Shown: positions 520 through 34,067 of the stretch, piece by piece
How positions within the stretch are numbered: position 1 is the stretch's first letter
Layout of the letters: each line of letters starts with the position of its first letter
DNA from: Polyangiaceae bacterium
GTDB lineage: Bacteria; Myxococcota_A; Polyangia; Polyangiales; Polyangiaceae
Direction of reading: 5' to 3'
Assembly: GCA_033763455.1 (NCBI GenBank)
Contig: JANRKO010000019.1
Span: forward strand, 32,001-96,000
DNA length: 64,000 bases
The notes under the pieces: model-generated
Seen by the model: only the letters and a program-made list of their open reading frames with translations
What the model was told of the DNA's origin: nothing
Database searches by the model: none
Made by a program: the position numbers and the translations under genes

Positions 520-1299
520 ATGGCTCTCCCGCTCACTCTCCTCGAGCAATTCCCGTCCCGCTTGGTTTGGCGCGCTGAAGCGCTGGAGGAGCAACGTTCT
601 GCGCCCGAAAGCAGTGTATTTCCAACGATCTCGGCCCTGGACGAAGTTCTTCCGGGCGGTGGATTGTTGCGGGGGGGCGTGGTGGAGCTGTCCAGCGCTG
701 GGGGCGTATCGCTAGGGGCCAGTGTTGCGTTGGCGGCCTGCCGGTCGGCCCAGGGAGAGGGGTACCTTCGCGCTGGAGAGCCCAGCTGGTGTGGGTTCGT
801 AGATCCGGGAGGCAGCTTGTATGGTCCGGGGGTGGAGCAAGCAGGGGTGTTGCTCCAACGCCTTCTGGTGGTGCGCCCGCCGCTTGCGGCGTTGAGCCGG
901 GTAGCCGTGCGCATGGCCGTGAGTCGTGTGTTTTCACTCCTGGTTATCGATTTGGCTTCAGTGCCGGGGGCGGAGCTAAATGTTCAGCTTGGGCCGTGGG
1001 CTCGTTGGGTGCGCCAATTGGCGATGGCTGTTGAAGGTTCAGAGAGTAGTGTACTGATGTTAACTGACGCGCGCTCCCATCGGCCATTGCCTTTGCCTGT
1101 TGCTCAACGCATCGAATTGGCTCGTGTGGATCCTAAAAGAGTGCGGGTTTCGGTCAAAAAAGATCGCTCGGGCCGCGTAATGCCTTCACAGGTGATTGAG
1201 CTTAGTCCCAATCCCAATCCCAATCCCAATCCCAATCCCAATCCCAATCCCAATCCCACTGAGCTTTTGTTGAAGGGAGTACGGCGTGCAAGAGCGTAG
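520..1299 (+). CDS. imuA: ImuA-like RecA/SulA-family translesion synthesis protein
   Basis: LDEVLPGGGLLRGGVVEL, degenerate P-loop, FVDP, LLVVRP; first gene before imuB and dnaE2. Confidence 0.85.
   Translation: MALPLTLLEQFPSRLVWRAEALEEQRSAPESSVFPTISALDEVLPGGGLLRGGVVELSSAGGVSLGASVALAACRSAQGEGYLRAGEPSWCGFVDPGGSLYGPGVEQAGVLLQRLLVVRPPLAALSRVAVRMAVSRVFSLLVIDLASVPGAELNVQLGPWARWVRQLAMAVEGSESSVLMLTDARSHRPLPLPVAQRIELARVDPKRVRVSVKKDRSGRVMPSQVIELSPNPNPNPNPNPNPNPNPTELLLKGVRRARA
1207..1254 (+). repeat. Perfect hexanucleotide repeat (CCCAAT)x8 encoding (Pro-Asn)8
   Basis: Read directly in DNA and protein near the imuA C-terminus. Confidence 0.97.
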
Positions 1300-3088
1300 C
1301 TTGTTTGATAGCGTGCAGCTAAAGCCTTCTCCAAGCGCAGAAAGGCGTGTGTTGGCGCTGGTTTTCCCACAGCTCCTTTGCGAATTGATCGACCAACATT
1401 TGCTCCTTCCGGCACTCTCAACTGCGGCAAAGCCCACAATTCCTACTGTTCCTTCGGTGAATGGTCGGCAAAGTAAACCCAGAGCACTTCCATTTGCCGT
1501 GGTCTTGACGGAAAAAGGACAATATTCCCCAGGCGCGCCGATGGAAGATGCTGCTTTGCGCAGCAATTCGCTGCTGCATACGGTGAGTGATGAAGCGCGT
1601 CGTTTGGGCGTTAAGGCCGGGCAACGGATTGTTGAAGCGCAGGCCGTGTTGGCGTCACTTCAAGTGTTTCAAATAACTCATGAAGAAGTGGCGCAAGCGT
1701 TGGGAAAGCTCGCGGAGATCGTGATGGATTTAGGGCCCACCGTTTCAGTGGGCACCCCAGATACGGTGTGGATCGATATTACGGGAGCTAGCCACTTGCG
1801 GGGTGGGGAGGCTGAGCTTTTGACGGAAGTACTCGGACGAGTGCGCGCATTGGGTCATCGAGTGCGCGCTGCCATTGCACACGGTCCCCTGTTAGCCAGA
1901 GCGTTTGCTACATGGAGTGTAGGCAGTGAAACCCCAATTGTTACGCGGCGCGAGGCGAAAGGTAGGATAGGCGTCTTGCCGCTTCTGGCTTTACCGTTGA
2001 ACTCTGAGCAATTGAGCTTTTTTGCGCGGGTGGGGGTAATGAGCGTGGCTCAGCTGCAGGCTCTTCCCAAGGCATCGCTCAGTGCTCGTTTGGGAGAAAG
2101 TGCGGGGCAAATCCTCGCGCTTACAGCGGGAGAAGATCCGGCGCCGCTCGTCGCTTTTCAGCCTCCTCGGGTGCTCGCAGAGCAAGCGGGCTTCGCTGAA
2201 GGTGTGTCGGGCGTGGAACCTCTTCTGTTCGTGCTTCGCGGTTTGGTGGCTCGTTTGAGTGTGCGGCTTATGGGTCGAGGGGAGGCTGCTGAGGAGCTGG
2301 AGCTGTGCTTGCAGCATGACCGCAAGATAGCGGAGTTCCATGGGCGGCCATTAGACACCAGGGTAACTTTCTCGTTGGCCTCACCGCTCTGGAAAGAAGA
2401 GGAGCTGTTGCGCGTGCTTCGGAGTAAAGTTGAGCGGCTAAAATTAACTTCCCCCACCGTTTCTGTTCGATTAGTTGTTTCGGTAATTGTACCCGCGCAA
2501 AGTCGGCAGCTAACGCTCTCGAGTGTGGTAGGTGGGCTTACAGAGCGAGCCTTTGATGAAAGTGAGCTGGCTGTCCTTTTGGCTGAATTAAATGCAGACA
2601 TCGGCAAGGAGCATGTAGGGGTCTTGAGGCTCCTGGATTCGCATCGCCCTGAGGCAAAAAGCGCGCTCTTTCCCGTAGTGATGAGTACGCGCTCCAATCA
2701 GCGTAGGTCTAAGCGGAAAAGCCGCAAAGTGGAAAGGGCCACCGCCAACAACGGGGAACTGCATCAAGCAGCCCCACAGGTTCGTCAAAAGCTCAGAGAG
2801 ACGATGCCAACGGCTGTGGGGCGTATGCCAACACGCCTTCTGCCGAAACCGATCTTGATTGATAGAACATTTAAGGTTGGCGAGGTAATAGGCTTAGGCG
2901 CTAACTTGTATACAATTGAACGAGCCGTGTTCGATCACCGTTTAGAGGGGGTCGCTTGGTGGTCAAAGCTTGCGGTGTCTCGCGATTATGTTCGGCTTTG
3001 GTTGAAGGGCTCCGAAGGTGGAGTGGCGGCCCTCGGCTATGTGAATCGTGATAGTGGTTCGCACTACATTCAGGCCATTTATGATTGA
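1286..3088 (+). CDS. imuB: ImuB, inactive Y-family DNA polymerase
   Basis: ARRLGVKAG, PDTVWIDITGASHL, DSHRPE, C-terminal WW...RDY...YD motif; position between imuA and dnaE2. Confidence 0.9.
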   Translation: MQERSLFDSVQLKPSPSAERRVLALVFPQLLCELIDQHLLLPALSTAAKPTIPTVPSVNGRQSKPRALPFAVVLTEKGQYSPGAPMEDAALRSNSLLHTVSDEARRLGVKAGQRIVEAQAVLASLQVFQITHEEVAQALGKLAEIVMDLGPTVSVGTPDTVWIDITGASHLRGGEAELLTEVLGRVRALGHRVRAAIAHGPLLARAFATWSVGSETPIVTRREAKGRIGVLPLLALPLNSEQLSFFARVGVMSVAQLQALPKASLSARLGESAGQILALTAGEDPAPLVAFQPPRVLAEQAGFAEGVSGVEPLLFVLRGLVARLSVRLMGRGEAAEELELCLQHDRKIAEFHGRPLDTRVTFSLASPLWKEEELLRVLRSKVERLKLTSPTVSVRLVVSVIVPAQSRQLTLSSVVGGLTERAFDESELAVLLAELNADIGKEHVGVLRLLDSHRPEAKSALFPVVMSTRSNQRRSKRKSRKVERATANNGELHQAAPQVRQKLRETMPTAVGRMPTRLLPKPILIDRTFKVGEVIGLGANLYTIERAVFDHRLEGVAWWSKLAVSRDYVRLWLKGSEGGVAALGYVNRDSGSHYIQAIYD

Positions 3089-3130
3089 GCATGGGGGTGG
3101 AGAGAATACAGCTCGCTTTGAGTGCTTGAG

Positions 3131-6100
3131 ATGTTTGCGGAGCTGTTAGCGCGATCGTGTTTTTCGTTCTTGCGTGGAGCTTCACATCCGAATGAGCTCG
3201 TTGATAAGGCGAAAGAGTTGGGTCTTTATGCCGTCGCCATTGCGGATCGTGATGGGCTTTATGGTTCGGTGCGAGCGCATACGCGAGCTAAAGAACTCGA
3301 ACAGCGAGTCATCGTGAGTGCGGAGTTGAGCCTGGGTGTGGGTAACGTTGAGTTGCCCGATCCAAAAGGTGCAGCTGAGCCGGCGGTATTAAGTTTTTTG
3401 GTCGAAAATCATCAAGGCTATCAGAACTTGTGTCGGCTGCTCACTCTTGCGCATGAGGAGCGTCCTAAAGGTGAGAGCTTGTTGATGCCTGAATGGCTGG
3501 CAGCTCACGCAGAGGGGCTCCAGGTATTGGTGCCGCTGCCGAGAGTAGTTGGGGATTCGAGTACGTGTTCGGATAAGGTGCTCGGTATCGTTCGCGAGGT
3601 ATTTCGAGAGCGTGCCTTTTTGGCTACCTATCGACATCAAGATGGCCACGGGCGCGAACGCGAGCAGCTAGCCAATGAATGGTCGATACGCTTTGGTTTG
3701 CCGATTTTGGCCACTGCTCGCGCATTTTTTCATGACCGTGAGCAGAAAGAGCTGTTGGATGTATTGTACTGTATCCGGCGCGGAATAACGCTTGATCAGG
3801 CGGGGTCTGAGCTTTTACCGAACCAGGAAGCGGTGTTGCGGTCTGAGGCAGAGATGCAGAAGCTCTTTTACGATCGGCCCGCTTGGGTGGAGCGCACGGG
3901 CGAATTAGCTCAACAGTTGCGGTTTAGCTTAAGTGAGCTCAACTATCGCTTCCCATGTACGCTTTTGCCCGGTGAAACTGCGGATCAGAAGCTACGCCGG
4001 TTGGCTTTTTCGGGGCTTGCAACGCGCTATCCCAAGGGGGTGCCAGGGGGAGTGGGGCAACAGGTGGAGAAGGAGCTCCAACTGATTCAGAAGCTGCAAA
4101 TGGCGAGCTACTTCTTGAGTACTTGGGAAGTGGTGGAAATGGCGCGCCGCCGCCGGATCTTATGCCAGGGCAGGGGAAGCGCAGCCAATAGTGCCGTTTG
4201 CTACGCACTTGGGATAACGGCGGTGGATCCTGCGCGGTCGAATCTCTTGTTCGAACGTTTTATGAGCGAAGAGCGCGCTGAGCCGCCAGATATTGATATT
4301 GATTTTGAGCACGAACGCCGTGAAGAGGTAATTCAGGAGATTTACGAGCAGTACGGGCGCGAGCGTGCGGCCATGGTCTCTGAGGTGATATGTTATCGAG
4401 GGAAGAGCTCGCTGCGAGAGGTAGGCAAAGTGCTGGGGCTTTCCTTGGATCAGGTGGCGCGTTTGAGTAGCACCATTACACATTGGGATACAGCGGATGT
4501 CTCGAAAGATCGCTTAAAGGAGATGGGGTTCGACGTGAGCGACGCGCGTTTGCTGCAGGTTATTCGGCTCGCTCAAAAGCTTGAAGGTATCCCACGACAC
4601 CTTTCAATTCATGTGGGGGGCTTTGTTGTATCGGCGACTCCACTCTACGAGGTGGCTCCCATTGAACCCGGGCGGATGCCTGGGCGCACCGTGATTCCGT
4701 GGGATAAAGATGATCTGGAGGTGCTGGGGTTCTTCAAAATTGACGTCTTGGGTCTAGGTATATTAACGGCAATTCGCAAAGCTTTATCGACTATTCATGC
4801 GGATGGCGGGCTTCGTGAAGAAGCGGAAGTGTTCGACCCGTTGAATGTTATAACAAGGATCCCGGCAGAAGATCCTGTGGTGTACGAGATGCTCTGCCAG
4901 GCGGATACTGTGGGGGTATTTCAAATCGAAAGCCGGGCGCAGATGTCTATGTTGCCGCGGCTGCGTCCGCGAAAATTTTATGATTTGGTGGTGGAAGTTG
5001 CGCTGGTGCGTCCGGGCCCGATTCAAGGCGGAATGGTGCATCCGTATTTGCGGCGCCGAAATGGTGAAGAACCTATTACGGTGCCTCATCCTGAACTCGG
5101 AAGTATTCTCGAACGCACGTTGGGTGTGCCGCTCTTTCAGGAGCAAGTGATGCAGATTTCAATCGTAGGTGCGGGCTATACTGGCGGTGAAGCGGATCAG
5201 TTGCGCCGCGATATGGCTGCTTGGAAAAAGACCGGGCGCTTGCTGCGGCATCGAGAACGTTTGCTTGCAGGGTTTGCCAATAAAGGGATATCGACGGCTT
5301 TTGGGGAGGCGTTGTTCGAACAGATCAAGGGTTTTGGTGACTATGGGTTCCCTGAGTCACACTCAGCATCGTTCGCGCTCTTAGTGTATGCCTCAGCTTG
5401 GCAAAAGGCTCATTATCCGGCGCATTTTGCTTGCGCTTTGATCAATTCGCAACCGATGGGATTCTATTCGCCATCGACCATTTTGCAGGATGCCCAACGC
5501 CATGGCGTGCAAGTGCGTGATGTATGTGTGATGCGAAGTGAGTGGGATTGTAGCCTTGAACTCGAGAATGCGGATGAGTCCTCGCTGACAGCGATGGATT
5601 CGATAGTATCGATTGGGTTGACAGCTTCAAAAGGGGACAAAGATGCCTCTCTCCCCCTGCCGCGTGCGATACGTCTTGGGTTTCGTTTGGTGAAAGGGTT
5701 CGGAGAGGCGGCGGCACAGCGCATCGTGCAAGCACGGAAGGTCAGAGCGTTCGAAAGTTTGAATGATCTTTTGGAACGCGCTGCGCTAAGAAAGGAAGAT
5801 GTTGAGCGTTTGGCAGAAGCGGGCGCACTTCAGCAATTGGTCGCTGAACGCCGGCAAGCCCTTTGGCAATCTCGCACTCCCAAGCTGGAAGGGCTTTTTC
5901 AAGGGCATGTTCTAGGGGAATCAAAGGTTCGGCTTCCGCCCCTGGGTGCCCAGGAAACGCTGTTGCTCGATTACGCGAAAAAGGGGCTTTCTACCGAAGA
6001 TCATCCCATGCGCCACCTGCGTTCAGAGTTGAAGGCACAAGGTGTGGTGGAATCACATCGTTTGGCGCAAATGAAGAAAGGGCAAAAGGTGCAAGTGGCG

Positions 6101-6415
6101 GGTGTAGTAATTACCCGACAACAACCAGGCACGGCCAGTGGTGTCGTCTTTATTACCTTGGAAGATGAATACGGATTCATCAACTTGGTGCTGTGGCGCC
6201 GCATTTTTGAGCGGTTTCATCACGCAGCACGTCACGCATCGCTACTTTGGGTGTATGGCGAAATTGATCGAGAGATACCCAGGAACGATCTCAGTCCTAA
6301 TGCACGGGTGAATTCGGGGGTGAATACACCGGTGATCCATGTCGTTGCCGAGAAGCTGCGTCGCTTGGAGCTGAATCAGGCGAACTTTAGCCGGGTATCA
6401 CGGGATTTTCACTGA
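3131..6415 (+). CDS. dnaE2: Error-prone DNA polymerase DnaE2 (ImuC)
   Basis: FSFLRGASHP, GRGSAANS, PPDIDIDFEHERREEV, GVFQIESRAQ, YGFPESH, C-terminal SRDFH typical of DnaE2. Confidence 0.97.
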   Translation: MFAELLARSCFSFLRGASHPNELVDKAKELGLYAVAIADRDGLYGSVRAHTRAKELEQRVIVSAELSLGVGNVELPDPKGAAEPAVLSFLVENHQGYQNLCRLLTLAHEERPKGESLLMPEWLAAHAEGLQVLVPLPRVVGDSSTCSDKVLGIVREVFRERAFLATYRHQDGHGREREQLANEWSIRFGLPILATARAFFHDREQKELLDVLYCIRRGITLDQAGSELLPNQEAVLRSEAEMQKLFYDRPAWVERTGELAQQLRFSLSELNYRFPCTLLPGETADQKLRRLAFSGLATRYPKGVPGGVGQQVEKELQLIQKLQMASYFLSTWEVVEMARRRRILCQGRGSAANSAVCYALGITAVDPARSNLLFERFMSEERAEPPDIDIDFEHERREEVIQEIYEQYGRERAAMVSEVICYRGKSSLREVGKVLGLSLDQVARLSSTITHWDTADVSKDRLKEMGFDVSDARLLQVIRLAQKLEGIPRHLSIHVGGFVVSATPLYEVAPIEPGRMPGRTVIPWDKDDLEVLGFFKIDVLGLGILTAIRKALSTIHADGGLREEAEVFDPLNVITRIPAEDPVVYEMLCQADTVGVFQIESRAQMSMLPRLRPRKFYDLVVEVALVRPGPIQGGMVHPYLRRRNGEEPITVPHPELGSILERTLGVPLFQEQVMQISIVGAGYTGGEADQLRRDMAAWKKTGRLLRHRERLLAGFANKGISTAFGEALFEQIKGFGDYGFPESHSASFALLVYASAWQKAHYPAHFACALINSQPMGFYSPSTILQDAQRHGVQVRDVCVMRSEWDCSLELENADESSLTAMDSIVSIGLTASKGDKDASLPLPRAIRLGFRLVKGFGEAAAQRIVQARKVRAFESLNDLLERAALRKEDVERLAEAGALQQLVAERRQALWQSRTPKLEGLFQGHVLGESKVRLPPLGAQETLLLDYAKKGLSTEDHPMRHLRSELKAQGVVESHRLAQMKKGQKVQVAGVVITRQQPGTASGVVFITLEDEYGFINLVLWRRIFERFHHAARHASLLWVYGEIDREIPRNDLSPNARVNSGVNTPVIHVVAEKLRRLELNQANFSRVSRDFH

Positions 6416-21280: not shown

Positions 21281-23254
21281 CTACGCGCCGCGCAGCGTCA
21301 CCGTGCTGAGCGGGTCAATGCCCAAATCTTCCGAAAGATCGTTGAAGCACACCACGTGGTAATCGGGGTGCTCGGTGGCTAGCAGCTTTCTTACGAAGCG
21401 GCGGATGCTTGGTTGAGTGAAGATGACAGTGGGGCGGCCCTCTGCTGGCGGTGAGGTTTGAATGGTCTTAGCGACGGCCCGCACGATGTCCCTGCCGGTT
21501 GCTGGGGAGAGTGCCAGGAACTGCCCTGCGTTGGTTTTTACAAGAGCATCTTTGATAGCCTGTTCGATGGTGGCATCGAGCAAGTAAACGCCGAGGCGCT
21601 TATGTTCTCCGCTTAGGCGATGCGTGGTGCTGCGTTTTAGGGCACTGCGAGCGAGCTCGGCGAGCTCTGCCGGTGGGCGCTCGTTGCCGGGGGCTTGAGT
21701 GAGGGCGTCTAGAATGGTGCGAAGATCCCGAATGCTCACCTTTTCTTGAACGAGTGAGCGAAGAACCTCAGCCAACACGGGAACATCTGCCGGTTTGGGT
21801 AGCTGACGAGCTCCCGCGGTGCTCACACTCTGAAGTGCGTCCAAAAGCGATTGGGTCTCCGTGATGTTGATGAAATCCCCGGCGCGCTGCTTGAAAATCT
21901 CGACCAACTCCGCCGTTAGCCAGGACGCTAACGTGTCCAGATCTCTAATCTCAGTCGGCAAAGTAGCGCGCTTTAACGGCACTTCGTGGACGGAGAACAG
22001 AACTTCGTCCGGGCCGAGCTCGGGGGCAACCTGCAGCGTGCCGGTCGGGATGGCGACTCCGAGCTCGGAAAATATGAGGGCTCGGGCGGAAGCAACTGCA
22101 CGAGTCAACTCGGAGTTGTTGCTCTCGGTGGGGCGTACTCCGCCGCCAAGATGCAAAATCGGGTCCCGCCCGAAACTCACAGACCATGGCACCACCACCG
22201 GCAAGAACCGCGGCTCGCCGTTTACCCAGTCCACGGGCGCGGTCACCTTCGCACTTGGAGTGCGCAAAAGGGTGCGGCTCCGTGCGCGGGAAGCTGCCAA
22301 AAGTAGCACTCCGATAACCAGGAAAGGCAAAGCCGGAAGCCCTGGAATTGCCGCCAAAAGCAGGATGAGCGCGCCGGCGGCGGCTAGAGCTTTCGGTTGC
22401 CCCAGCAATTGTCCCGCCAGATCGGTCCCGAGCGATGTTTCTCCCTCTTCGCTGGCAACACGCGTCACCAAGATGCCGGCTGCTGTCGTAATAACCAACG
22501 CGGGGATCTGCGCGACCAAGCCATCCCCGATGGTCAGCAACCCGTAGCGCTTCAGGGCCACGAGCGGGTCCAGGTGCTGCTGCCCCACGCCAATGGCAAG
22601 GCCTGCCCCAATGTTCACGAGAGTGATCACGAGCGCCGCGATGGTATCCCCCTTCACGAACTTCATCGCTCCGTCCATCGCTCCGTAAAATTGGCTCTCC
22701 CGTTCGAGTCGCTGGCGGCGGCGCTTCGCTTCCGCGTTATCGATCGCTCCCGAGCGGAGATCGGCATCGATGGCCATTTGTTTTCCCGGCATCGCATCGA
22801 GCGTGAAGCGGGCACCCACTTCAGCGACCCGTTCGCTCCCCTTGGCGATCACCACAAACTGAATGATCGTCAAGATCAGGAAAATTACGGCTCCCACGAC
22901 GTAGTTGCCCCGCACCACAAAGCTGCCAAACGCATGGATCACCTCGCCGGCGTCAGCCTGCAGCAGGATCAGCCGGGTGGAGGAAACGTTGAGGGCCAAG
23001 CGGATCAGCGTGGTAATCAGCAAAACGCTAGGAAAAGCCGCAATCTTGAGTGCGTTGGCGACGTACAAAGATACTAAAAGAATGGCGACGGAAATGCCCA
23101 GGTTGGCCGTGAGCAACAAATCCAAGAGCCACGTGGGCAGCGGCACAATCATGAGCCCCACCACGCTGAGCACCACTGCGCCCAGCACCAGATCTGGAAG
23201 ATGGAGCTTCTTTTGGGGCAGCGGCGGCGAGAGCTTGGCGAGGGAAGGGAGCAT
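21281..23254 (-). CDS. FHIPEP-family type III export gate protein (SctV/FlhA family)
   Basis: RLALNVSSTRLIL, ERVAEVGARFTLDAMPGKQMAIDADL, FYGAMDGAMKFVKGD, LTIGDGLVAQIP. Confidence 0.95.
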   Translation of the reverse strand: MLPSLAKLSPPLPQKKLHLPDLVLGAVVLSVVGLMIVPLPTWLLDLLLTANLGISVAILLVSLYVANALKIAAFPSVLLITTLIRLALNVSSTRLILLQADAGEVIHAFGSFVVRGNYVVGAVIFLILTIIQFVVIAKGSERVAEVGARFTLDAMPGKQMAIDADLRSGAIDNAEAKRRRQRLERESQFYGAMDGAMKFVKGDTIAALVITLVNIGAGLAIGVGQQHLDPLVALKRYGLLTIGDGLVAQIPALVITTAAGILVTRVASEEGETSLGTDLAGQLLGQPKALAAAGALILLLAAIPGLPALPFLVIGVLLLAASRARSRTLLRTPSAKVTAPVDWVNGEPRFLPVVVPWSVSFGRDPILHLGGGVRPTESNNSELTRAVASARALIFSELGVAIPTGTLQVAPELGPDEVLFSVHEVPLKRATLPTEIRDLDTLASWLTAELVEIFKQRAGDFINITETQSLLDALQSVSTAGARQLPKPADVPVLAEVLRSLVQEKVSIRDLRTILDALTQAPGNERPPAELAELARSALKRSTTHRLSGEHKRLGVYLLDATIEQAIKDALVKTNAGQFLALSPATGRDIVRAVAKTIQTSPPAEGRPTVIFTQPSIRRFVRKLLATEHPDYHVVCFNDLSEDLGIDPLSTVTLRGA

Positions 23255-26850: not shown

Positions 26851-27342
26851 ATGAGCGACCCCAATCGACGTGCATTTCTGGGCGGCGCGGCCTTATTAGC
26901 CATTCCGGCGCTGGTTGAGAACTGCGGGGAGGGGACGGCTGTTGGCAAGAGCGCGGATGAGCGCGTCGCTGAGCTCATCGCGTTGAGCCGCGACCAGCAC
27001 GGCAAGCCGCACGTGGCGCGGGTGGCATTCCTCACGCCTGAGCGCACCAGCGGGACGCTTCCTGTTTCGGCCGCGGAGGCCGCTGATCTTCGGGCGGTGC
27101 TCGCTTCGGGTGATTTTAAGCTCTTCCAAGAACGGGGCCTACGCTTCGACAACAAGAAGTTCGTGTACATCCGTGAGAGTGAGGAGGGCACCGTGGTGCA
27201 CGCGGTGCGGCGCGGGGAGTTCGTAACGATTCGCAAGGCTCGCAGTGAGCTTGTGGTGGCAACCAGTGTGGACGGGATGGCGCACCCGCGCGCTGTCGAA
27301 GCCGTTTACCAGTACGTGCAACGCTCCGCGGCAATCGCCTGA
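26851..27342 (+). CDS. Profilin-like protein with twin-arginine (Tat) signal, possible lipoprotein
   Basis: NRRAFL plus hydrophobic stretch plus Cys; VSAAEAADL...FQERGLRFDNKKFVYIR...VHAVRRGEFVTIRKARSELVVA...AVEAVYQYV follows the profilin pattern (E-helix, G-L-x-x-x-x-x-K-Y/F, strands, C-terminal helix); next to actin. Confidence 0.8.
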   Translation: MSDPNRRAFLGGAALLAIPALVENCGEGTAVGKSADERVAELIALSRDQHGKPHVARVAFLTPERTSGTLPVSAAEAADLRAVLASGDFKLFQERGLRFDNKKFVYIRESEEGTVVHAVRRGEFVTIRKARSELVVATSVDGMAHPRAVEAVYQYVQRSAAIA

Positions 27343-27356
27343 AGTTAGGAATAAGA

Positions 27357-28037
27357 ATGCACAAGCTTCAGCTCACACTGGCCGCACTGCTTTTTTGCGT
27401 ATTCGCCGCTGGCACAGCCAGCGCTGGAAGCTGCGAGCAGGAAGTGGTGGCAGAGTGCGTTGCCAATTCCTGCCCTACCTTTTGCAGGACGCTCGCCGAA
27501 GGCCACGTGGAGGCATGTAAGGTAGGGTGCACGGCACAAGATCGCTGTAAGCTTGCTCTATTTGGCGGCCAAGACCGCCCGGCGCAGGTCGAGCTGGATG
27601 CGCAGAAGCGCGAGCAGCTCATGAGTTGCCTCGCAGAGAACCGCAAGCAACCTGTCGTACCCAAGGAGCTCGGCAAACCGATCCGCACTGAGGCGGATTA
27701 CGTCGCCCCCTCTGAAGCGAAGACGAAAGCCGTCAAGCGCAGCAGCCTTAAGAACACCAAGGCAAGCAAGGCGGCGTGGAAAGCCCGCAAAGCTCGCTCA
27801 TTTGCTGAGCGCAAAGTTGGTTCAAAGCGCAAGGATCCGCTCACCTACGTGCCCCCGGCTGGGCCTGTGAAGTCTCCCCCGAGGCCTCCGCTTCCGAGGT
27901 CAGCACCTCCCGGGCCAATGCCGCCCAAGCCGATGCCACCGAAGCCGATGCCTCCCAAGCCCCGCCCACAGCCAGCGCCGCCGGCGCAAAGCCCGAGCGG
28001 CCAGCAGGCACCGAGTCCGGCGCCCGCGAGCCCCTGA
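27357..28037 (+). CDS. Secreted protein with 8-Cys domain, basic linker and proline-rich tail
   Basis: Sec signal ending ASA, AGGA ribosome-binding site, 14 nt after the profilin-like gene, (PMPPK)x3. Confidence 0.85.
   Translation: MHKLQLTLAALLFCVFAAGTASAGSCEQEVVAECVANSCPTFCRTLAEGHVEACKVGCTAQDRCKLALFGGQDRPAQVELDAQKREQLMSCLAENRKQPVVPKELGKPIRTEADYVAPSEAKTKAVKRSSLKNTKASKAAWKARKARSFAERKVGSKRKDPLTYVPPAGPVKSPPRPPLPRSAPPGPMPPKPMPPKPMPPKPRPQPAPPAQSPSGQQAPSPAPASP
27915..27959 (+). repeat. 15-bp coding tandem repeat x3 (PMPPK)
   Basis: ccaatgccgcccaag/ccgatgccaccgaag/ccgatgcctcccaag. Confidence 0.9.
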
Positions 28038-28076: not shown

Positions 28077-29237
28077 TCAGAAGCACTTGCGGTGCACGAT
28101 CCCCGGGCCTGCCTCGTCGTACTCAGCCTTGGTGATCCACATCTGCTGGAAGGTGCTCAGGCTCGCAAGGATGGAGCCACCGATCCATACCGAATATTTG
28201 CGCTCGGGGGGCGCGATGACTTTGACCTTCATCGTTGGGGGAGCCAGGTTGGTCAATTCCTTTTGCATACGCTCGGCAATCCCAGGGAACATCGTGCTGC
28301 CGCCAGCCAGCACGAGGTTGCTGTATAGATCCGCGCGGATATCGACGTCGCACTTCATGATCGAGTTGTACGTGGTCTCGTGGATCCCCACGGCCTCCAT
28401 GCCCAAAAAGCTGGGTTGGAAGAGCGCTTCGGGGCAACGGAAGCGCTCGTTCCCGATCGTAATAACCTGCCCGTCCGGGAGCTCGTAGCTCTTTTCCAGA
28501 CTGCTTGAACTCGCTGCTGTCTGCATCTCCGCGTCAAAGTCTAGGGCTACGTAGGCGAGCTTCTCCTTGATATCTCGAACGATCTCACGCTCTGCAGTTG
28601 TCGTGAAGGAATAGCCTCGCTCAGTCAGAATCTTCATTAGGTAATCAGTGAGGTCGCGGCCTGCGAGGTCGAGCCGCAGGATCGCGTGGGGTAGGGCGTA
28701 ACCCTCGTAGATGGGCACCGTGTGGGTTATCCCGTCGCCACAGTCGAAAACCAATCCGGTGGTGCGCCCCGAAGCGTAGAGGGCAAGTACGGCCCCCATC
28801 GCCACGTACATGGCGGGCGTATTGAACGTTTCGAACATAATTTGCGTCATCTTCTCACGGTTCGCCTTGGGATTGAGCGGGGGTTCCGTGAGCAACACGG
28901 GGTGTTCTTCTGGCGCCACGCGCAGCTCGTTGTAAAACGCGTGGTGCCAGATCTTCTCCATGTCGTCCCAGTTGGTGACGATGCCGTGTTCGATCGGATA
29001 CTTGAGCGTCAAGATCCCGCGCTTGGCCTGCGCCTCGTCGCCCACGTAAGCGTCTTTCTGGCCCATCCCCACCATCACCCCCTGGTGGCGTGGGCGGCCT
29101 ACGATGCTCGGGAATACCGCCCGCGGCGCGTCGTCGCCAGCGAAGCCGGCCTTAATCATCCCTGAACCGTTGTCGACGACTAGGGCTTGGACTTCGCCCT
29201 CGGTTTGTCCGAGGACTGGGCTGGGAACGAGGGGCAT
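28077..29237 (-). CDS. Eukaryote-type actin (not MreB/ParM/FtsA)
   Basis: [79 protein letters not shown]-terminal IVHRKCF; no introns. Confidence 0.99.
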
Positions 29238-29313: not shown

Positions 29314-30720
29314 CTAACCGCTCGCTTCGCATGACCGCTGGATGGCCGAGTAGTGAGCATGTGCGGCGCGCAACATATGCTCATGCTCCGGGCTGAATGT
29401 ATCGATAATATCGAGGGCCCCCACCGGCCCAGCGCGGAACGCCAGCCAATCAGCCAGCATCCCACGCGCGCGCGCCTCGCCCGATACTGACAGCTGGAGT
29501 TCTTCCCTCCACACATCCGCCACTGATGCGATCCCCAAACGATCGAGCTCATCAGCATCGAGCGCATACCAGCGAGCCCGCTTCAGGGCCTCGCTCACAT
29601 CTCCATGAGCCACGGTCACCTCGATCGCGCGCTCAGGATCCGCGAGCAGCCATACCAACTTATCGCGTCGGAGCGGAGCGTCCTTTGGCAGCGGAAAGGC
29701 CAGCTTGGCTCGCTCACCATCCGGTGGCCCAGGCACAACGAACCCAGCGTAGACCCAGCGCTCCGTTGGCGTACGGCGCCCGTAAAACATCCGAACCGCC
29801 TCGCCCGCAGTGTAGTTCATGCCGGCAACTGCACGCAGAGAGTTGCCCTCTAGGAATGTGCTCTCGGCGCCCAGCGTTTCGTCGTGGTCCAGCAGATCCC
29901 AAAGCGGCACCAGGGCGAGCTCATCGGGTACGGCGGTTTGGCGGGACGAAAGGATCGCCCCTGCCCAAAGCCAACGCTGCAGCGTGAACGCCTCGAGCGG
30001 TAGCGGGCGTTTGGCGGGCTCCGTCAGCCGTAAGCGGTGGTGCGCGATGCAATAAAGCTGCAGCACTCCGGCGAGGAAGCTTCTTCCCATGTTTGCAGCC
30101 ACGAGGTGTGAGCCAGGCGAACGCGGCCAGCTGAGCGCCGTTCCGGCCACTTCTCCGGGCAGCGCTGCAACATAAGGTGCCCACGTGTTGGTAGCCTCGT
30201 TTACGTAGCGGGCCCGGAGCAACCAAAGCATCAAATTGCCTGGCCCGAAAAGCGGTGCTTCTTGGAGCCATGGGCCCAATATCGGATCAGCGAAAACGTC
30301 GCCGTTGCGCAACATCGCACTCAACGGCACCTCAACCAACGTGGCGCCCCTGGCGATTGGCGCTGTCGCCTTAACGCTTGCACCCTTGGGTGTTGCGAGC
30401 AAACGCAGCCCGGGCGCGAACCGAACGCCGTGCAAGGCCGCCCACGCGGCCAGTGCATCTAACGCCTGTTGAGATACCGGGAGCGATGGTGGATCCATGG
30501 GTTGGCACTTTTGCACCAACGCCGAAGCTTCGTGCAAATCAGGGAGTTCGAAGCTCTCCGCGTCCCAGGCCACGGCACGCCGAAGCCCGGCGATGCGCGC
30601 GAGCAGATGGGCAAGATCATCGATCGCCGTTTGCGCCTGCGCCTCGGAAGAGGCTTCGTTGGGGGAGTCGGGTTCCAGGTGATCATCTGAGCTAAGGGCG
30701 GGGAGCGGAACAAGTGGCAA
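29314..30720 (-). CDS. SET-domain protein of the SETD3/Rubisco-LSMT type, putative actin-histidine N-methyltransferase
   Basis: WAPYVAALP, LPLEAFTLQRWLWAGAILSSRQ, ALVPLWDLLDH, AGEAVRMFYG, GFV and a C-terminal LSMT-like helical domain; TTG start uncertain. Confidence 0.82.
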   Translation of the reverse strand: MPLVPLPALSSDDHLEPDSPNEASSEAQAQTAIDDLAHLLARIAGLRRAVAWDAESFELPDLHEASALVQKCQPMDPPSLPVSQQALDALAAWAALHGVRFAPGLRLLATPKGASVKATAPIARGATLVEVPLSAMLRNGDVFADPILGPWLQEAPLFGPGNLMLWLLRARYVNEATNTWAPYVAALPGEVAGTALSWPRSPGSHLVAANMGRSFLAGVLQLYCIAHHRLRLTEPAKRPLPLEAFTLQRWLWAGAILSSRQTAVPDELALVPLWDLLDHDETLGAESTFLEGNSLRAVAGMNYTAGEAVRMFYGRRTPTERWVYAGFVVPGPPDGERAKLAFPLPKDAPLRRDKLVWLLADPERAIEVTVAHGDVSEALKRARWYALDADELDRLGIASVADVWREELQLSVSGEARARGMLADWLAFRAGPVGALDIIDTFSPEHEHMLRAAHAHYSAIQRSCEASG

Positions 30721-30889
30721 ACGAGGGAGCTGTTAAGTAGCAGGAGTGCAAATGTCCTGCGCAGGCATATTTTGAGGGCAAACAACCGTATTTTGACCTG
30801 GTACAGGCTGGTGATGGCACCCTACCATTTGAGTTGGATTTTCCCGCTATTGCGCAGAGTTGAAATCCCAGCCCGGAAATGGTGAACCT

Positions 30890-32620
30890 GTGAAGTTATC
30901 GCCCGTTTTACCCCTAGGGGTGGTCTTGGTCAGCCTCAGTGTTGGTTGCTCTGGGCTGTTTGAGTCTAACAGCGGCCGAAAGTCGTCCTCGAACGGCAAC
31001 GAGCCAGCCGAGGCCGGCACAACGCCTGCATCTCCCACAGACACGCCTCCAGGTCCGGGCCCAAGCGAAATGCCCACCGTGCCCACCGCGCCGTCGCCTG
31101 GCGCTTGCACGCTTCCGGGTACACCCCTTGCGGTGCAAACGCGCCGGCTTACCCCTCGGCAGTACCAAACGACACTGGAAGCCGGGCTTGGGTTGAGCTT
31201 GCAGCCGGCTGAATTGCCTCAGTTTCAAGACGACAATCCCACCATCGGGCTTGCCAACGATCCTCAGAAGCTGCGCATCACCACTGTCTCGGTAGACAGC
31301 CTTTATGCCTCGCTGCTTGCTGTGTCCAAGCGGTCACTGGCTAACGTTTCTGATGTGCAGAGTTGTATCTCAGCTACGGGCACGGCGTGCTTCGAACAAC
31401 TTATCGATAGCTTAGGTCAGAAGTTGTGGCGAAGGCCTGTGGCAGCGGAGGAAAAGGCGGATTTGTTAGCGGGGGTGGCGAGCGTAGCTGCGGCTTCCGG
31501 TACGCGCGAAGATCAGGCGGATTTTCTCTTGCAAGCGCTGCAGTTTTCCCCCAATACGCTGTACCGGCTGGAGCTGGGGGATGCGACGGGCAACCTCACT
31601 GATCAAGAGCTCGCTAGCCTGCTTTCGTACACATTTTGGGACGCACCCCCAGATGCGGCGCTGTTCGCGGCCGCTCAGGCCGGTACGCTTCACACCCCAG
31701 GGGTGCTGAAGTCTGAAGCTCAGCGTTTGGCTCAGGATCCCCGTTTCCCGAAGGCGGTTGCGGGCTTTCTTTGGGATTTTTTGAAGCTCGAGAATATCTA
31801 CACGAAAAAGAAAGACGATACGCTTGGCCTCACGCCAGCGGTACGTTCCACGCTGGCGGCCTCCGCATCGGGTACGCTCGACCAAGCGCTCACTAGCGGG
31901 CAAGCTTCGCTTCTCGACGTGTTCTCCGGGGTGAGTTTCCCCGTGAACGATGAATTGGCACCGTTTTTCGGAGTGCCGGCGGTTGGCACTAGCCAGCTAA
32001 CGCCTCAAAGCCTCAGCCCAGAGCAACGCCTCGGCATCCTCTCGCACCCGGGCTTTCTGACGGTTCACGCTGGGGAAGGCTCCACCAGCATCGTCAAACG
32101 TGGCGTATTCGTTTTGGAGCAGCTACTCGGCGTGAAGATCCCCGCTCCGCCGCCCAATGTTCAAGGCATTGACCCCGCCACCATTCCCAATCTCGATACC
32201 GCCACTACCAGTGCGCGTGAGCTCTTGAAGGTGACGCACAGCGCGCAGCCCGCGTGCAACGGTTGCCACTCCATCATCGATCCTGCCGGATTTGGCCTGG
32301 AGAATTTCGATACCGTGGGGCATTTCCGAACGGTTGAAAAGCAGACCGTGCCGATCGACGCCTCAGGTAGCATCACCGTTGGTTCTGAAACGTTAACCTA
32401 TACCAATAGTATCGAATATATCCGAGCGCTGAGCAGCTCTCAGGCGCTGCGCAATGCTGTGGTTGAGCATTACTTCGCCTACGCGCTCGGGCAACTTGGT
32501 GACGGGTGTGAAGCCCATCGATTTAGCGAGGCAATAGCAAAAGCAAACGACTCGCTTTCTGCACTTCCAACCGAGCTGGTTGCCACTCAAAGCTTTGTGC
32601 GCCGCGCGCCCACCCCTTGA
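30890..32620 (+). CDS. DUF1592/DUF1588-family lipoprotein with CxxCH motif
   Basis: Lipobox SVGC, RRLTPRQY, SPNTLYRLE, LSYTFWDAPPD, TSIVKRG, CNGCH, GFGLENFD. Confidence 0.9.
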   Translation: MKLSPVLPLGVVLVSLSVGCSGLFESNSGRKSSSNGNEPAEAGTTPASPTDTPPGPGPSEMPTVPTAPSPGACTLPGTPLAVQTRRLTPRQYQTTLEAGLGLSLQPAELPQFQDDNPTIGLANDPQKLRITTVSVDSLYASLLAVSKRSLANVSDVQSCISATGTACFEQLIDSLGQKLWRRPVAAEEKADLLAGVASVAAASGTREDQADFLLQALQFSPNTLYRLELGDATGNLTDQELASLLSYTFWDAPPDAALFAAAQAGTLHTPGVLKSEAQRLAQDPRFPKAVAGFLWDFLKLENIYTKKKDDTLGLTPAVRSTLAASASGTLDQALTSGQASLLDVFSGVSFPVNDELAPFFGVPAVGTSQLTPQSLSPEQRLGILSHPGFLTVHAGEGSTSIVKRGVFVLEQLLGVKIPAPPPNVQGIDPATIPNLDTATTSARELLKVTHSAQPACNGCHSIIDPAGFGLENFDTVGHFRTVEKQTVPIDASGSITVGSETLTYTNSIEYIRALSSSQALRNAVVEHYFAYALGQLGDGCEAHRFSEAIAKANDSLSALPTELVATQSFVRRAPTP

Positions 32621-32636
32621 AACTACGAGGCACGTC

Positions 32637-34067
32637 ATGAAATCCCCTCAACTGACTCGTCGCTCACTTCTGGCCGGCCTTGGTGCAGGCACGGCGCTCG
32701 GCTCGCTTTTCCTCGATTCCCCCGTGGCGCGTGGCCAGGCAAGCGCGGCGCCCGTGCGCCTCTTGTTGATCCCACTGCAGCATGGCTGGGGCAGAGATCG
32801 AAATTTTCAGAACTTCGCTGGCACTGAATCCACTTTTACGATCCCGGCTCCGCTCACGGGCTTGGAGGCAATCAAGCATCAATGCGTGTTTGTGGACGGC
32901 CTGCGCGGCACGCTCTGGGGCAACGCTCACGACGTTTCGTATTCAGATATCTTTACGGCTTCGGTGCCGTGGGATGAAGGCAGCTCAGCACAGCTCGGTG
33001 CACAGTTCCCCGAGCCCCTCGGGCCCTCGATTGATTGGCACATTGCCAATACGTTAAAGAAGAATGTGTTCCGTGGCTCGGCCGGGTATCAATCCTGGGG
33101 TAAGCCCTATCACCCGCTGTGTTTCGACTCAGCCGCGCAACAGCAGGCATTCTACACCAACGCCCGCCAAGCATTTGACGCCGTGGTGGCCCCTCTTGCG
33201 CCGCCAGCAAACCCAACGGATTTGGCCGTGCGTAATGCCGTGCGCAACAATGTTTTTTCGTACGTTGCCAAAGACATGGATCGACTGATCACGCGTCTGA
33301 GCGGCACAGAGAAGCTCAAGCTGGAGGGGCACCTGGCTGCCGTGAATGATTTGAACCGGCGCATAACCGGAGGTGGCGGGCTGGGCGGAGGCACTTTGGA
33401 GATCCCGCCGCGACCAGGCGATATGCAAGCCTTCGAAAAGGAGGTGGACGACTTCTTTGATATGGTTCGCGTGCTCTTCACCGCGGATACGCATCGCGTG
33501 GCGGTGTTGGGCTTAGGGGAGCAGGTCAAAGATTGGACATGGACGGACGCGGCCAATAAGGCACAGGTTGGCAATATTTGGAATCTCGAGGGTTTCCATC
33601 ACGACGTTGCTCACCATGGCGATAAAGCCGACCAAAGGCGCTCTTTCGAAGGTTGGGCGGCTTGGTATGTGCGAAAGATTGTCTCGTTTGTGCAGCGCCT
33701 AGAGCAAACGCCAGATGTAGATGGCCGCATGCTCATCGATAACACGATTATTGTACTCACCGGCGAAGTTGAGACAGGAGAGCACGACACGCGCTGCAAG
33801 CTTCACACGGTGATCGGTGGGGGCGGCGGTATCCGGCGTGGGCGTTGGCTGAAGCTTCCGGATGTGGAGCCACGAAGTCGCGGCGGTGTGTTCATCGGCG
33901 GCAAGGATCGCGCGGGCACTACGATTGAGTCCGGCATCAACTACGGGTTGCCGTTTGGCCGACACCACCATGCCGATCTGTGGGTCACCATCGCCCGCCT
34001 GTGCGGTGCCCCTGTGGATACTTTTGGTACGGATATTTACAACTTCAGCCCGATATCACTCACTTAG
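32637..34067 (+). CDS. DUF1552-family protein with Tat signal
   Basis: TRRSLL signal, PSID, EKLKLEGHL, HHDVAH, LIDNT; usual partner of DUF1592. Confidence 0.85.
   Translation: MKSPQLTRRSLLAGLGAGTALGSLFLDSPVARGQASAAPVRLLLIPLQHGWGRDRNFQNFAGTESTFTIPAPLTGLEAIKHQCVFVDGLRGTLWGNAHDVSYSDIFTASVPWDEGSSAQLGAQFPEPLGPSIDWHIANTLKKNVFRGSAGYQSWGKPYHPLCFDSAAQQQAFYTNARQAFDAVVAPLAPPANPTDLAVRNAVRNNVFSYVAKDMDRLITRLSGTEKLKLEGHLAAVNDLNRRITGGGGLGGGTLEIPPRPGDMQAFEKEVDDFFDMVRVLFTADTHRVAVLGLGEQVKDWTWTDAANKAQVGNIWNLEGFHHDVAHHGDKADQRRSFEGWAAWYVRKIVSFVQRLEQTPDVDGRMLIDNTIIVLTGEVETGEHDTRCKLHTVIGGGGGIRRGRWLKLPDVEPRSRGGVFIGGKDRAGTTIESGINYGLPFGRHHHADLWVTIARLCGAPVDTFGTDIYNFSPISLT

Follow-up and report, generated by a model that had tools for sequence, protein, structure and literature searches.

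Here, we describe a eukaryote-type actin gene with a replaced catalytic glutamine in a 64,000-nucleotide stretch of DNA from a soil or sediment bacterium of the family Polyangiaceae (hereafter, the window), which corresponds to bases 32001–96000 of a contig of 243 kb, according to its database record, in a genome of 6.56 Mb, 92 contigs and 93.7% completeness. The gene, present in a single copy in this genome, is a horizontally acquired, eukaryote-type actin gene in a Myxococcota chromosome and has been kept with three partner genes. Together they form a module that encodes a SETD3-like methyltransferase, the actin, a secreted cysteine-rich basic protein and a profilin-like protein with a twin-arginine motif. 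Our analysis makes it probable that the product is a functional acquired actin which binds ATP, polymerises and hydrolyses ATP slowly, and which would thus form long-lived filaments.

The actin gene (28077..29237, minus strand) is an intact, intron-less open reading frame (ORF) of 386 amino acids, which matched the Pfam Actin family (PF00022) with an E value of 2.4e-148 over residues 15–386 and aligned without gaps, at approximately 90% identity over residues 13/15–386, to the Dictyostelium major actin and to vertebrate cytoplasmic and beta-actin chains from solved structures. A full-length actin-family match and high identity to cytoplasmic actins are thus found in a protein that lacks the catalytic Gln137 of conventional actin, the residue that holds the attacking water for ATP hydrolysis. 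At this position, the codon GGG (28794..28796, minus strand; ccc on the plus strand) encodes a glycine in the context YVAMGAVL, with residue n of the ORF corresponding to actin residue n-11 and Gly148 of the ORF to position 137. This substitution had been claimed in an earlier, sequence-only reading of the window and was borne out by the plus-strand bases and the structure alignments. The accompanying changes listed there (A108P, S155C, V159I, C17I, S300A, T303S and K291A) were all present in the alignment to the Dictyostelium and beta-actin chains, which also contained I136M. A108P (codon CCC, 28881..28883, minus strand), which was evident in the alignment and in the codon comparison with the orthologues, lies in the Pro-rich loop that governs the flipping of His161 (PMC10062479).

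Among 184 database actins retrieved with the window actin, Gln137 was found in 235 of 237 aligned stretches, the remaining two carrying Gly, in a Vigna predicted protein, and Thr. The Vigna angularis protein (P0138, 381 amino acids, 62% identical in the segment) was the sole database actin-like protein seen with Gly137 and may be a decaying gene copy. Similarly, Ala108 occupied 210 of 216 aligned stretches of database actins. S155C was not unusual, with 51 stretches of the 184-actin set, which was selected by words shared with this segment, carrying Cys. Among the matches listed by a database search with actin residues 128–182, the window's own protein was the only one above 89% identity in that stretch, and no close orthologue with G137 was found.

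With regard to the remaining nucleotide site, D11, S14, K18, P109, N111, D154, G156, H161, R177 and the sensor His73 are kept, and both phosphate loops (P1 and P2) were found in place, the changes inside them (C17I, S155C and V159I) being conservative. The filament-contact surfaces look canonical, no residue of the predicted profilin interface (see below) is substituted, and the peptide 66–88 is identical to that of the aligned beta-actin chain. Syntenic orthologues were found in a Kofleriaceae metagenome-assembled genome (MAG; locus L011) and in two Myxococcales MAGs (loci L014 and L043), in which module neighbours adjoin actin as judged by tblastn against the fetched loci. Ratios of nonsynonymous to synonymous substitution rates (dN/dS) of 0.086, 0.101 and 0.138 against L011, L014 and L043, respectively, at dS values of approximately 1.1–1.4, showed that the actin is under strong purifying selection.

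When compared with the consensus of 78 eukaryote-type rows, the window actin showed around 36 differences after the N-terminus (35 when counted from residue 8). Eight of them (S60A, T89A, I136M, Q137G, S141A, V159I, K291A and S300A) fall at columns at least 95% conserved that never show the window residue. There were 16 such invariant-column changes in L011, 23 in L014 and 41 in L043, and by this count the window actin is the most conservative of its clade. Five of its eight unusual changes (136, 137, 141, 159 and 300) map to the hinge helix, the P2 loop or the nucleotide pocket, and each of the four module actins is altered in at least one otherwise invariant cleft position, i.e., Q137, V159 and S300 in the window, N111D in L011, N111A, Q137P and K336E in L014, and P112S, D157A and K336M in L043. 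At codon 137 itself, the orthologues have CAG (L011 and L043) and CCG (L014), and the two base changes that separate CAG from the GGG of the window argue for more than chance or a sequencing error.

A precedent for an actin deprived of this side chain is described in the available part of PMC10062479, where human cardiac alpha-actin with Q137A polymerises like the wild type, with low ATPase activity and delayed release of inorganic phosphate (Pi), and where hydrolysis is triggered by a flip of His161 that the Ala108 methyl group, part of the Pro-rich loop, brings about sterically. In Q137A crystals from the same source, two waters replace the side chain and the site is little changed. In the window actin, Gln137 would have given way to Gly by a two-base change in this lineage, with A108P, I136M, S141A, V159I and S300A nearby. 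Slow cleavage would leave the filaments in the ATP or ADP-Pi state with little turnover, and they would then serve as a stable scaffold rather than as a treadmilling polymer. No member of the cofilin and gelsolin families was found in the 93.7%-complete genome of the window, the controls of this search giving a match in no bacterial genome, as expected. If neither cofilin nor gelsolin is there to sense the nucleotide state, selection for fast hydrolysis would be weak, or fast hydrolysis would even be a disadvantage, and this would explain the repeated replacement of Gln137 in bacterial actin xenologues. An ATPase-impaired actin with unusually stable filaments had already been proposed in the sequence-only reading. 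The loss of Gln, the altered Pro-rich loop, the retention of the phosphate loops, D154, H161 and H73, and the analogy with Q137A are all consistent with that proposal, and suggest such an impairment.

Position 137 was surveyed in the 80 best actin stretches from prokaryotes, with one genome per species. Many of the surveyed loci were short, low-coverage contigs with canonical actins and evident contaminants. In particular, L002–L010, L015, L016 and around 35 further short loci are contigs of 0.4–2 kb, often of low coverage, with a canonical eukaryotic actin in isolate assemblies of unrelated bacteria and one archaeon, and most likely represent contamination of public assemblies. Four more (L021, L022, L023 and L030) were rejected as bacterial, since they look eukaryotic on account of split matches, low ORF cover, a reverse transcriptase of the long interspersed nuclear element (LINE) type and extra actin copies; L022 and L023 are one 417-kb contig of a MAG labelled 'bacterium', which has several actin copies split by introns along with an ORF for a LINE-type reverse transcriptase/endonuclease, and looks mis-binned. 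Another 21 loci had at least 5 kb, an uninterrupted match and bacterial-type or syntenic flanks. Gln137 was kept in eight of these (L011, L017, L018, L019, L025, L026, L043 and L066) and replaced in 13, namely by Ala in two Microcoleus loci, Asn in L013, L020, L041 and L073, Pro in L014, Gly in L027 and Microcystis L044, Asp in L051, L053 and L070, and Arg in L055.

Two maximum-likelihood trees were calculated with quick searches, one with 59 rows under LG+G4 and one with 49 rows under LG+C20 with posterior mean site frequencies (PMSF), the latter without ten redundant or eukaryote-type contigs. Of the 28 bacterial-contig rows in the 49-row tree, 20 had a residue other than Gln, and all 21 eukaryote-type rows had Gln; among rows at least 64% identical to the window actin, 10 of 18 were non-Gln. 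The minimum number of changes between Gln and non-Gln on this tree was nine, an approximate figure given that 22 of 46 inner branches have support below 80. Altogether, seven residues (G, A, N, D, S, P and R) replace Gln137 across the bacterial actins. The actins of Microcystis (L044) and Dolichospermum (L046) have I17, P108 and G137 as in the window, a likeness that looks convergent because the window actin and the Microcystis/Dolichospermum actins lie in separate clades. Only 3–5 independent pairs were available for an association between A108P and the loss of Gln137, which left a test without power. The notion that Gln is kept where cofilin is present was rejected, with cofilin found in one of five genomes (the Rickettsiales MAG, see below) and three Gln-keeping Myxococcota genomes lacking it. 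As to whether orthologues share G137, a point raised in the sequence-only reading, the outcome was mixed: Gln137 is lost in many bacterial actins, but two of the three syntenic orthologues keep it. On these sequences, G137 is lineage-specific and not a family property, because the syntenic orthologues have Q, Q and P.

Such variability could also be read as neutral drift, with Gln137 being unconstrained in bacteria and G137 having no meaning beyond the loss of an unneeded activity. The seven residues at the position, the differences between close syntenic orthologues (G, Q, Q and P) and the absence of cofilin whether Gln is kept or lost are in line with this explanation. However, the rest of the actin is under strong purifying selection and has the fewest invariant-column changes of its clade (8 vs. 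16, 23 and 41), and five of its eight changes concentrate in the hinge helix, the P2 loop or the nucleotide pocket. Furthermore, E, H, K and L, the one-step neighbours of CAG/CAA, are absent among the 20 non-Gln rows, while the two-step residues G, A, D and N recur. All in all, we consider drift unlikely, though worth keeping in view.

Several points weigh against slow hydrolysis in long-lived filaments. Firstly, hydrolysis may be only moderately slowed, because the Q137A crystal site, with its two waters, is nearly unchanged (PMC10062479, available part). Secondly, Gln137 is retained by two of the three syntenic orthologues and in 8 of the 28 actins on bacterial contigs, and the Gln-keeping genomes of L011, L043 and L025 are also without cofilin, so that the absence of cofilin is no predictor of Gln loss and the changes could be neutral drift. 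The nine changes counted are approximate for the branch values given above, and the divergent rows, of 42–55% identity, may not be conventional-actin xenologues. An actin so close to those of eukaryotes (90%) might also fail to fold where their chaperonin is missing, and A108P may have an effect of its own. Finally, the GGG codon is read from the assembly, and an exported profilin and a non-exported actin may never meet.

As to distribution, no copy of the actin was detected in 60 relatives from the genus, family and order of the window genome, and 7 of 400 further genomes from a sample of the phylum had one, at 43–78% identity. In the congeners G001 and G003, the FHIPEP–FIST–PP2C–ddl block is syntenic, and the stretch that leads on from it to the 3-keto-disaccharide hydrolase gene holds other genes and no module; the distribution of the module is patchy, because congeners carry the syntenic flanks without it. 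The ddl and 3-keto-disaccharide hydrolase genes served as synteny anchors across congeners, the DUF1588 gene being unusable with 27–36 matches per congener genome. The latter gene belongs to window positions 30860-34067, which encode a DUF1588/DUF1592/DUF1595 protein and a DUF1552 partner, a greatly expanded family whose 27–36 matches per congener genome (G001–G003) were all at E <= 1e-50. Within the module, the SETD3-like gene was found in L011 and L043, the contig of L014 being short.

Phylogenetically, the window actin grouped with L011, L014, L043, L051, L031, L068 and L017, the last from a Rickettsiales MAG, in an eight-row, mostly Myxococcota clade supported in the two trees by values of 95 and 94 in the Shimodaira–Hasegawa-like approximate likelihood ratio test (SH-aLRT). 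The cyanobacterial actins (Microcystis/Dolichospermum, Microcoleus and Oscillatoria) were placed elsewhere in the tree. The eukaryotes sampled were limited to those with proteins closest to the window actin, and this does not allow a donor to be named. The Rickettsiales locus resembles the window in its clade membership and in having an actin and an adjacent profilin between bacterial genes, those for the glyS beta subunit and thyX; it differs in that Gln137 is kept, cofilin adjoins actin and the profilin has no twin-arginine translocation (Tat) signal. Its profilin, actin (88% identical to the window actin) and cofilin/ADF genes stand in a row (L017:4401-6770, GC content 31%), a second cofilin match lies elsewhere in the 1.2-Mb genome, and the arrangement resembles a eukaryotic actin toolkit of three genes, carried by what is likely an endosymbiont.

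An artefact could arise from contamination by eukaryotic DNA, from a chimeric contig or from a mistake in assembly or sequencing at the codon. It has in its favour that the genome is in 92 contigs and that many 'bacterial' assemblies hold short contaminant actin contigs, e.g., L002–L010. Nevertheless, the window lies 32–96 kb into the 243-kb contig, with bacterial core genes on both sides of the module (SMC, imuB/dnaE2, pheA, cmk, rpsA, the FHIPEP gene and ddl). The actin gene has no introns, and the GC content at third codon positions (GC3) of the module genes is similar to that of the neighbours (0.68–0.77 vs. 0.59–0.73). In addition, the same gene order recurs in three independent MAGs, and the change from CAG to GGG needs two substitutions. 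An artefact is thus extremely improbable. In particular, the actin gene is not contamination, because core bacterial flanks surround it in a 243-kb contig and the synteny of the module is repeated in three Myxococcota MAGs. In metagenomes, one sediment run holds 0.66 of the sampled words of the actin gene, although this run may be the source sample itself; the other runs hold shares of at most 0.15 and are uninformative on habitat or expression.

Directly upstream of the actin gene and on the same strand lies the gene for the SETD3-like SET-domain methyltransferase of 468 amino acids (29314..30720, minus strand). No Pfam family was matched by this ORF at the default threshold, and a sequence search of the PDB (phmmer) returned 10 distinct sequences, all of them SETD3 (best E 1.8e-15, residues 90–344). 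An AlphaFold model obtained from a six-row alignment, with a mean predicted local distance difference test (pLDDT) value of 69, retrieved SETD3 in all of the top 20 Foldseek matches listed (E 1.8e-13), followed by LSMT (2e-09) and SETD6 (8.6e-09), with template modelling (TM) scores of approximately 0.47–0.50. By both sequence and fold, the protein thus has a SET domain and an LSMT-like C-terminal domain closest to SETD3, at approximately 18–19% identity to human SETD3 in the fold alignment.

SETD3 is the N-methyltransferase of actin His73, and His73 is present in all four module actins. According to the available part of PMC6684798, the histidine pocket of SETD3 consists of Asn255, Trp273, Ile310, Tyr312 and Ser324, and SETD6 and LSMT have Ala at the position of Trp273. 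The window enzyme keeps Trp273 and Tyr312, with Trp invariant in six of six family members, and has Thr for Asn255 (Asn in two of the six), Met for Ile310 and Ala for Ser324. We infer that the SETD3-like enzyme may methylate His73 of the actin. The actins of L051, L031 and L068, from the same clade, have Tyr or Arg at position 73; no SETD3-like neighbour was found beside them, but their contigs are short.

Eight database relatives of the SETD3-like protein were found, the full-length ones having 708–748 amino acids and 56–64% identity. Three of the five scanned relatives have a C-terminal GNAT domain (PF00583), and the window copy ends before it. With the GNAT part of the orthologues as query, no separate copy was detected elsewhere in the window genome, and a comparison with the PDB gave generic acetyltransferase matches only, none specific to an actin N-acetyltransferase. 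Similarly, a scan of metagenome contigs with the SETD3-like alignment found no relative. In L043 (3742-5955), and with proteins P0123, P0126 and P0127, a SETD3-like-GNAT fusion stands directly upstream of an actin with an acidic N-terminus, and the fused protein may combine two activities in actin maturation. In the cyanobacterial MAG UBA2566, a GNAT acetyltransferase is encoded by a gene of its own directly upstream of actin (L019:5190-5726).

The window actin starts with an 11-residue, non-acidic N-terminal extension, and its orthologues start short and acidic (MSDQQ..., MSDDEPS... and MGTDGSGE...). The first nine residues of the window actin (MPLVPSPVL, 29211-29237, minus strand) and of the SETD3-like ORF (MPLVPLPAL, 30694-30720, minus strand) are nearly identical, with differing codons; orthologues of neither gene have an MPLVP-type start, and a DNA alignment of the two 5' regions found no duplicated block. 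This common start could be due to chance, to a mis-called TTG start of the SETD3-like gene or to a common N-terminal signal.

On the other side of the actin gene and convergent to it, 735 bp from its 3' end and with one gene between, lies the gene for the profilin-like protein (26851..27342, plus strand; 163 amino acids), which matched Pfam Profilin with an E value of 4.8e-07, above the curated cut-off. It is the sole profilin in the window genome. The locus has adjacent actin and profilin genes in a bacterial chromosome, the arrangement known from ActM and PfnM. A complex of actin residues 12–386 with the mature profilin-like domain (residues 31–163) was modelled alongside three controls. The score was 0.86, vs. 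0.02 for the best control, contacts agreed to at least 98% between runs, and the pLDDT of the partner was at least 88. The mark of 0.86 was reached by 116 of 157 solved complexes and by 2 of 215 mismatched pairs, and the score may reflect nothing but likeness to known structures, since solved profilin–actin complexes exist. On actin, the modelled interface comprises residues 166–174, 284–289, 349–355 and 369–375, which we take to be the canonical profilin site. The profilin-like protein is predicted by this model to bind the barbed-end face of actin.

An N-terminal twin-arginine motif of the form RRxFL was present in all four profilin orthologues, as NRRAFLGG in the window (residues 5–12) and as NRRTFLGG, DRRAFLGG and KRRAFLKG in the others. 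The NCBIfam model TIGR01409 (TAT_signal_seq) matched three of the four (best E 0.0036), the window profilin being unmatched at E values up to 10. TatC is present in the window genome. The profilins beside the Microcystis (L044) and Rickettsiales (L017) actins match the Pfam model from residue 1–3 and have no N-terminal extension, and the putative twin-arginine signal is therefore specific to this module. Between the profilin-like and actin genes lies the gene for the secreted cysteine-rich basic protein (27357..28037, plus strand; 226 amino acids), with a Sec-type signal peptide, a conserved domain with eight Cys and a basic, Pro-rich tail. Its orthologues adjoin actin in L011, L014 and L043, and all have the signal peptide and the eight Cys, as judged, like the signal peptide of the window protein, by eye. 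No Pfam family was found for this protein, and an Atlas search with the Cys-rich domain gave no usable match. Its candidacy as a proline-rich profilin ligand was weakened, the poly-Pro tract not being conserved in the orthologues.

These signals raise the question of whether the actin system works in the cell envelope. In an extracytoplasmic scenario, the Tat-signal profilin would ferry folded, His73-methylated ATP-actin through the Tat pore, and the Sec-exported Cys-rich protein would organise it in the periplasm or at the surface, where, with no ATP supply, a non-hydrolysing actin would keep its bound ATP and stay assembly-competent. The Tat pathway exports signal-less partners as 'hitchhikers', and the twin-arginine motif in four of four profilin orthologues, with TIGR01409 in three and TatC in the genome, would fit such a route. 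So would the signal peptide and eight Cys of the third protein in all orthologues, the lack of an N-terminal extension in the L044 and L017 profilins, and the retained canonical interface in the complex model, with the reservation made above on solved complexes. However, nothing places the actin outside the cytoplasm, and neither the actin nor the SETD3-like enzyme has an export signal. L011 and L043 keep Gln137 with the same Tat-profilin, so that the rationale for G137 is not general; the Tat hidden Markov model does not match the window profilin, and the Pro-rich tract of the third protein is not conserved. We regard this scenario as improbable; if true, some myxobacteria would run a eukaryote-derived actin system outside the cytoplasm.

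The same putative export signals, in two of the four module proteins, also bear on a secreted or injected effector that would co-polymerise with, and so poison, the actin cytoskeleton of eukaryotic prey or host cells. Myxobacteria are able to break down bacteria and yeast (PMC3035250, available part), and the filament-contact and profilin-binding surfaces look canonical. Against this stand the lack of a signal peptide on the actin, an FHIPEP export-gate gene that is syntenic in congeners without the module, and no toxin-delivery genes among the Pfam matches of the window; a cytoplasmic modifying enzyme beside actin also fits an endogenous polymer better. An effector role is accordingly very unlikely. 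The suggestion in the sequence-only reading that host filaments might be disturbed by co-polymerisation was not supported either, given a Myxococcota genome of 6.56 Mb, an actin without an export signal and no indication of a host. An endogenous, slowly hydrolysing actin in long-lived filaments continues to be the reading we favour.

With regard to the surroundings of the module, the FHIPEP gene (21281-23254, minus strand; 657 amino acids) encodes an FlhA/SctV-type export gate 5 kb from it. Three congeners without the module share its synteny with FIST, PP2C and ddl (the contig of G002 ending after ddl), and the FHIPEP gene is therefore not tied to the module and probably unrelated to it. Positions 1286-6415 hold the usual mutagenesis cassette, with a gene for a dnaE2-type error-prone polymerase behind an imuB-like gene of the IMS family. 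Further genes of the window encode a GH2 glycosidase and an aspartyl- or lysyl-type tRNA synthetase. A scan of the module for promoters and terminators gave nothing above shuffles.

Eukaryote-type actins in bacteria are already known from two cases, Microcystis ActM and Haliangium BARP. What is new here is a natural G137 variant in an otherwise highly conservative actin, and the recurrent loss of Gln137 across bacterial xenologues, including the lineage of ActM, the only biochemically studied case. The third novelty, the association of actin with a SETD3-like enzyme, a putative Tat-profilin and a Cys-rich protein in one module, is a larger finding than G137 and was absent from the sequence-only reading. 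In a literature search that left subscription journals mostly outside, no prior description was found of a Tat-profilin, a bacterial SETD3–actin pair, the loss of Q137 or a Myxococcota actin–profilin pair. The repeated loss of Gln137 amounts to a natural experiment on the purpose of ATP hydrolysis by actin without readers of the nucleotide state, and the presence of an actin with a SETD3 homologue in a conserved module implies that enzymes of actin maturation moved together with actin or were recruited alongside it.

Among known systems, ActM from Microcystis aeruginosa PCC 7806 forms short ribbons upon polymerisation, with its profilin, PfnM, decorating the filaments (Guljamow et al. 2012, PMC3254629, available part), a text in which a term search found none of the words hydrolysis, Gln137, Q137 and glutamine. 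In both cases, a bacterial chromosome carries the gene for a eukaryote-type actin beside one for a profilin, and the residues I17, P108 and G137 of the window actin occur at the Microcystis locus L044 as well. However, ActM is 64% identical to the window actin and falls in a separate clade in both trees, which does not indicate common descent, and at L044 the profilin has no N-terminal extension and no SETD3-like or Cys-rich gene was detected by tblastn. BARP of Haliangium ochraceum, reported as the first bacterial actin homologue in the available part of PMC3035250, is an actin homologue of the same phylum and was not among the loci retrieved; both ActM/PfnM and BARP are also mentioned in the available part of PMC6906331. 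In comparison with human SETD3, the window enzyme matches SETD3 alone in the PDB sequence search and keeps Trp273 and Tyr312 beside an actin that keeps His73, but it has Thr, Met and Ala at Asn255, Ile310 and Ser324, and in its relatives it is fused to GNAT. Finally, the human cardiac alpha-actin with Q137A has likewise lost the Gln137 side chain and polymerises with low ATPase activity and low Pi release (PMC10062479, available part). That protein is a laboratory mutant with Ala at the position and a wild-type Pro-rich loop, whereas the window actin is a natural protein in which G137 is combined with A108P, I136M and S141A.

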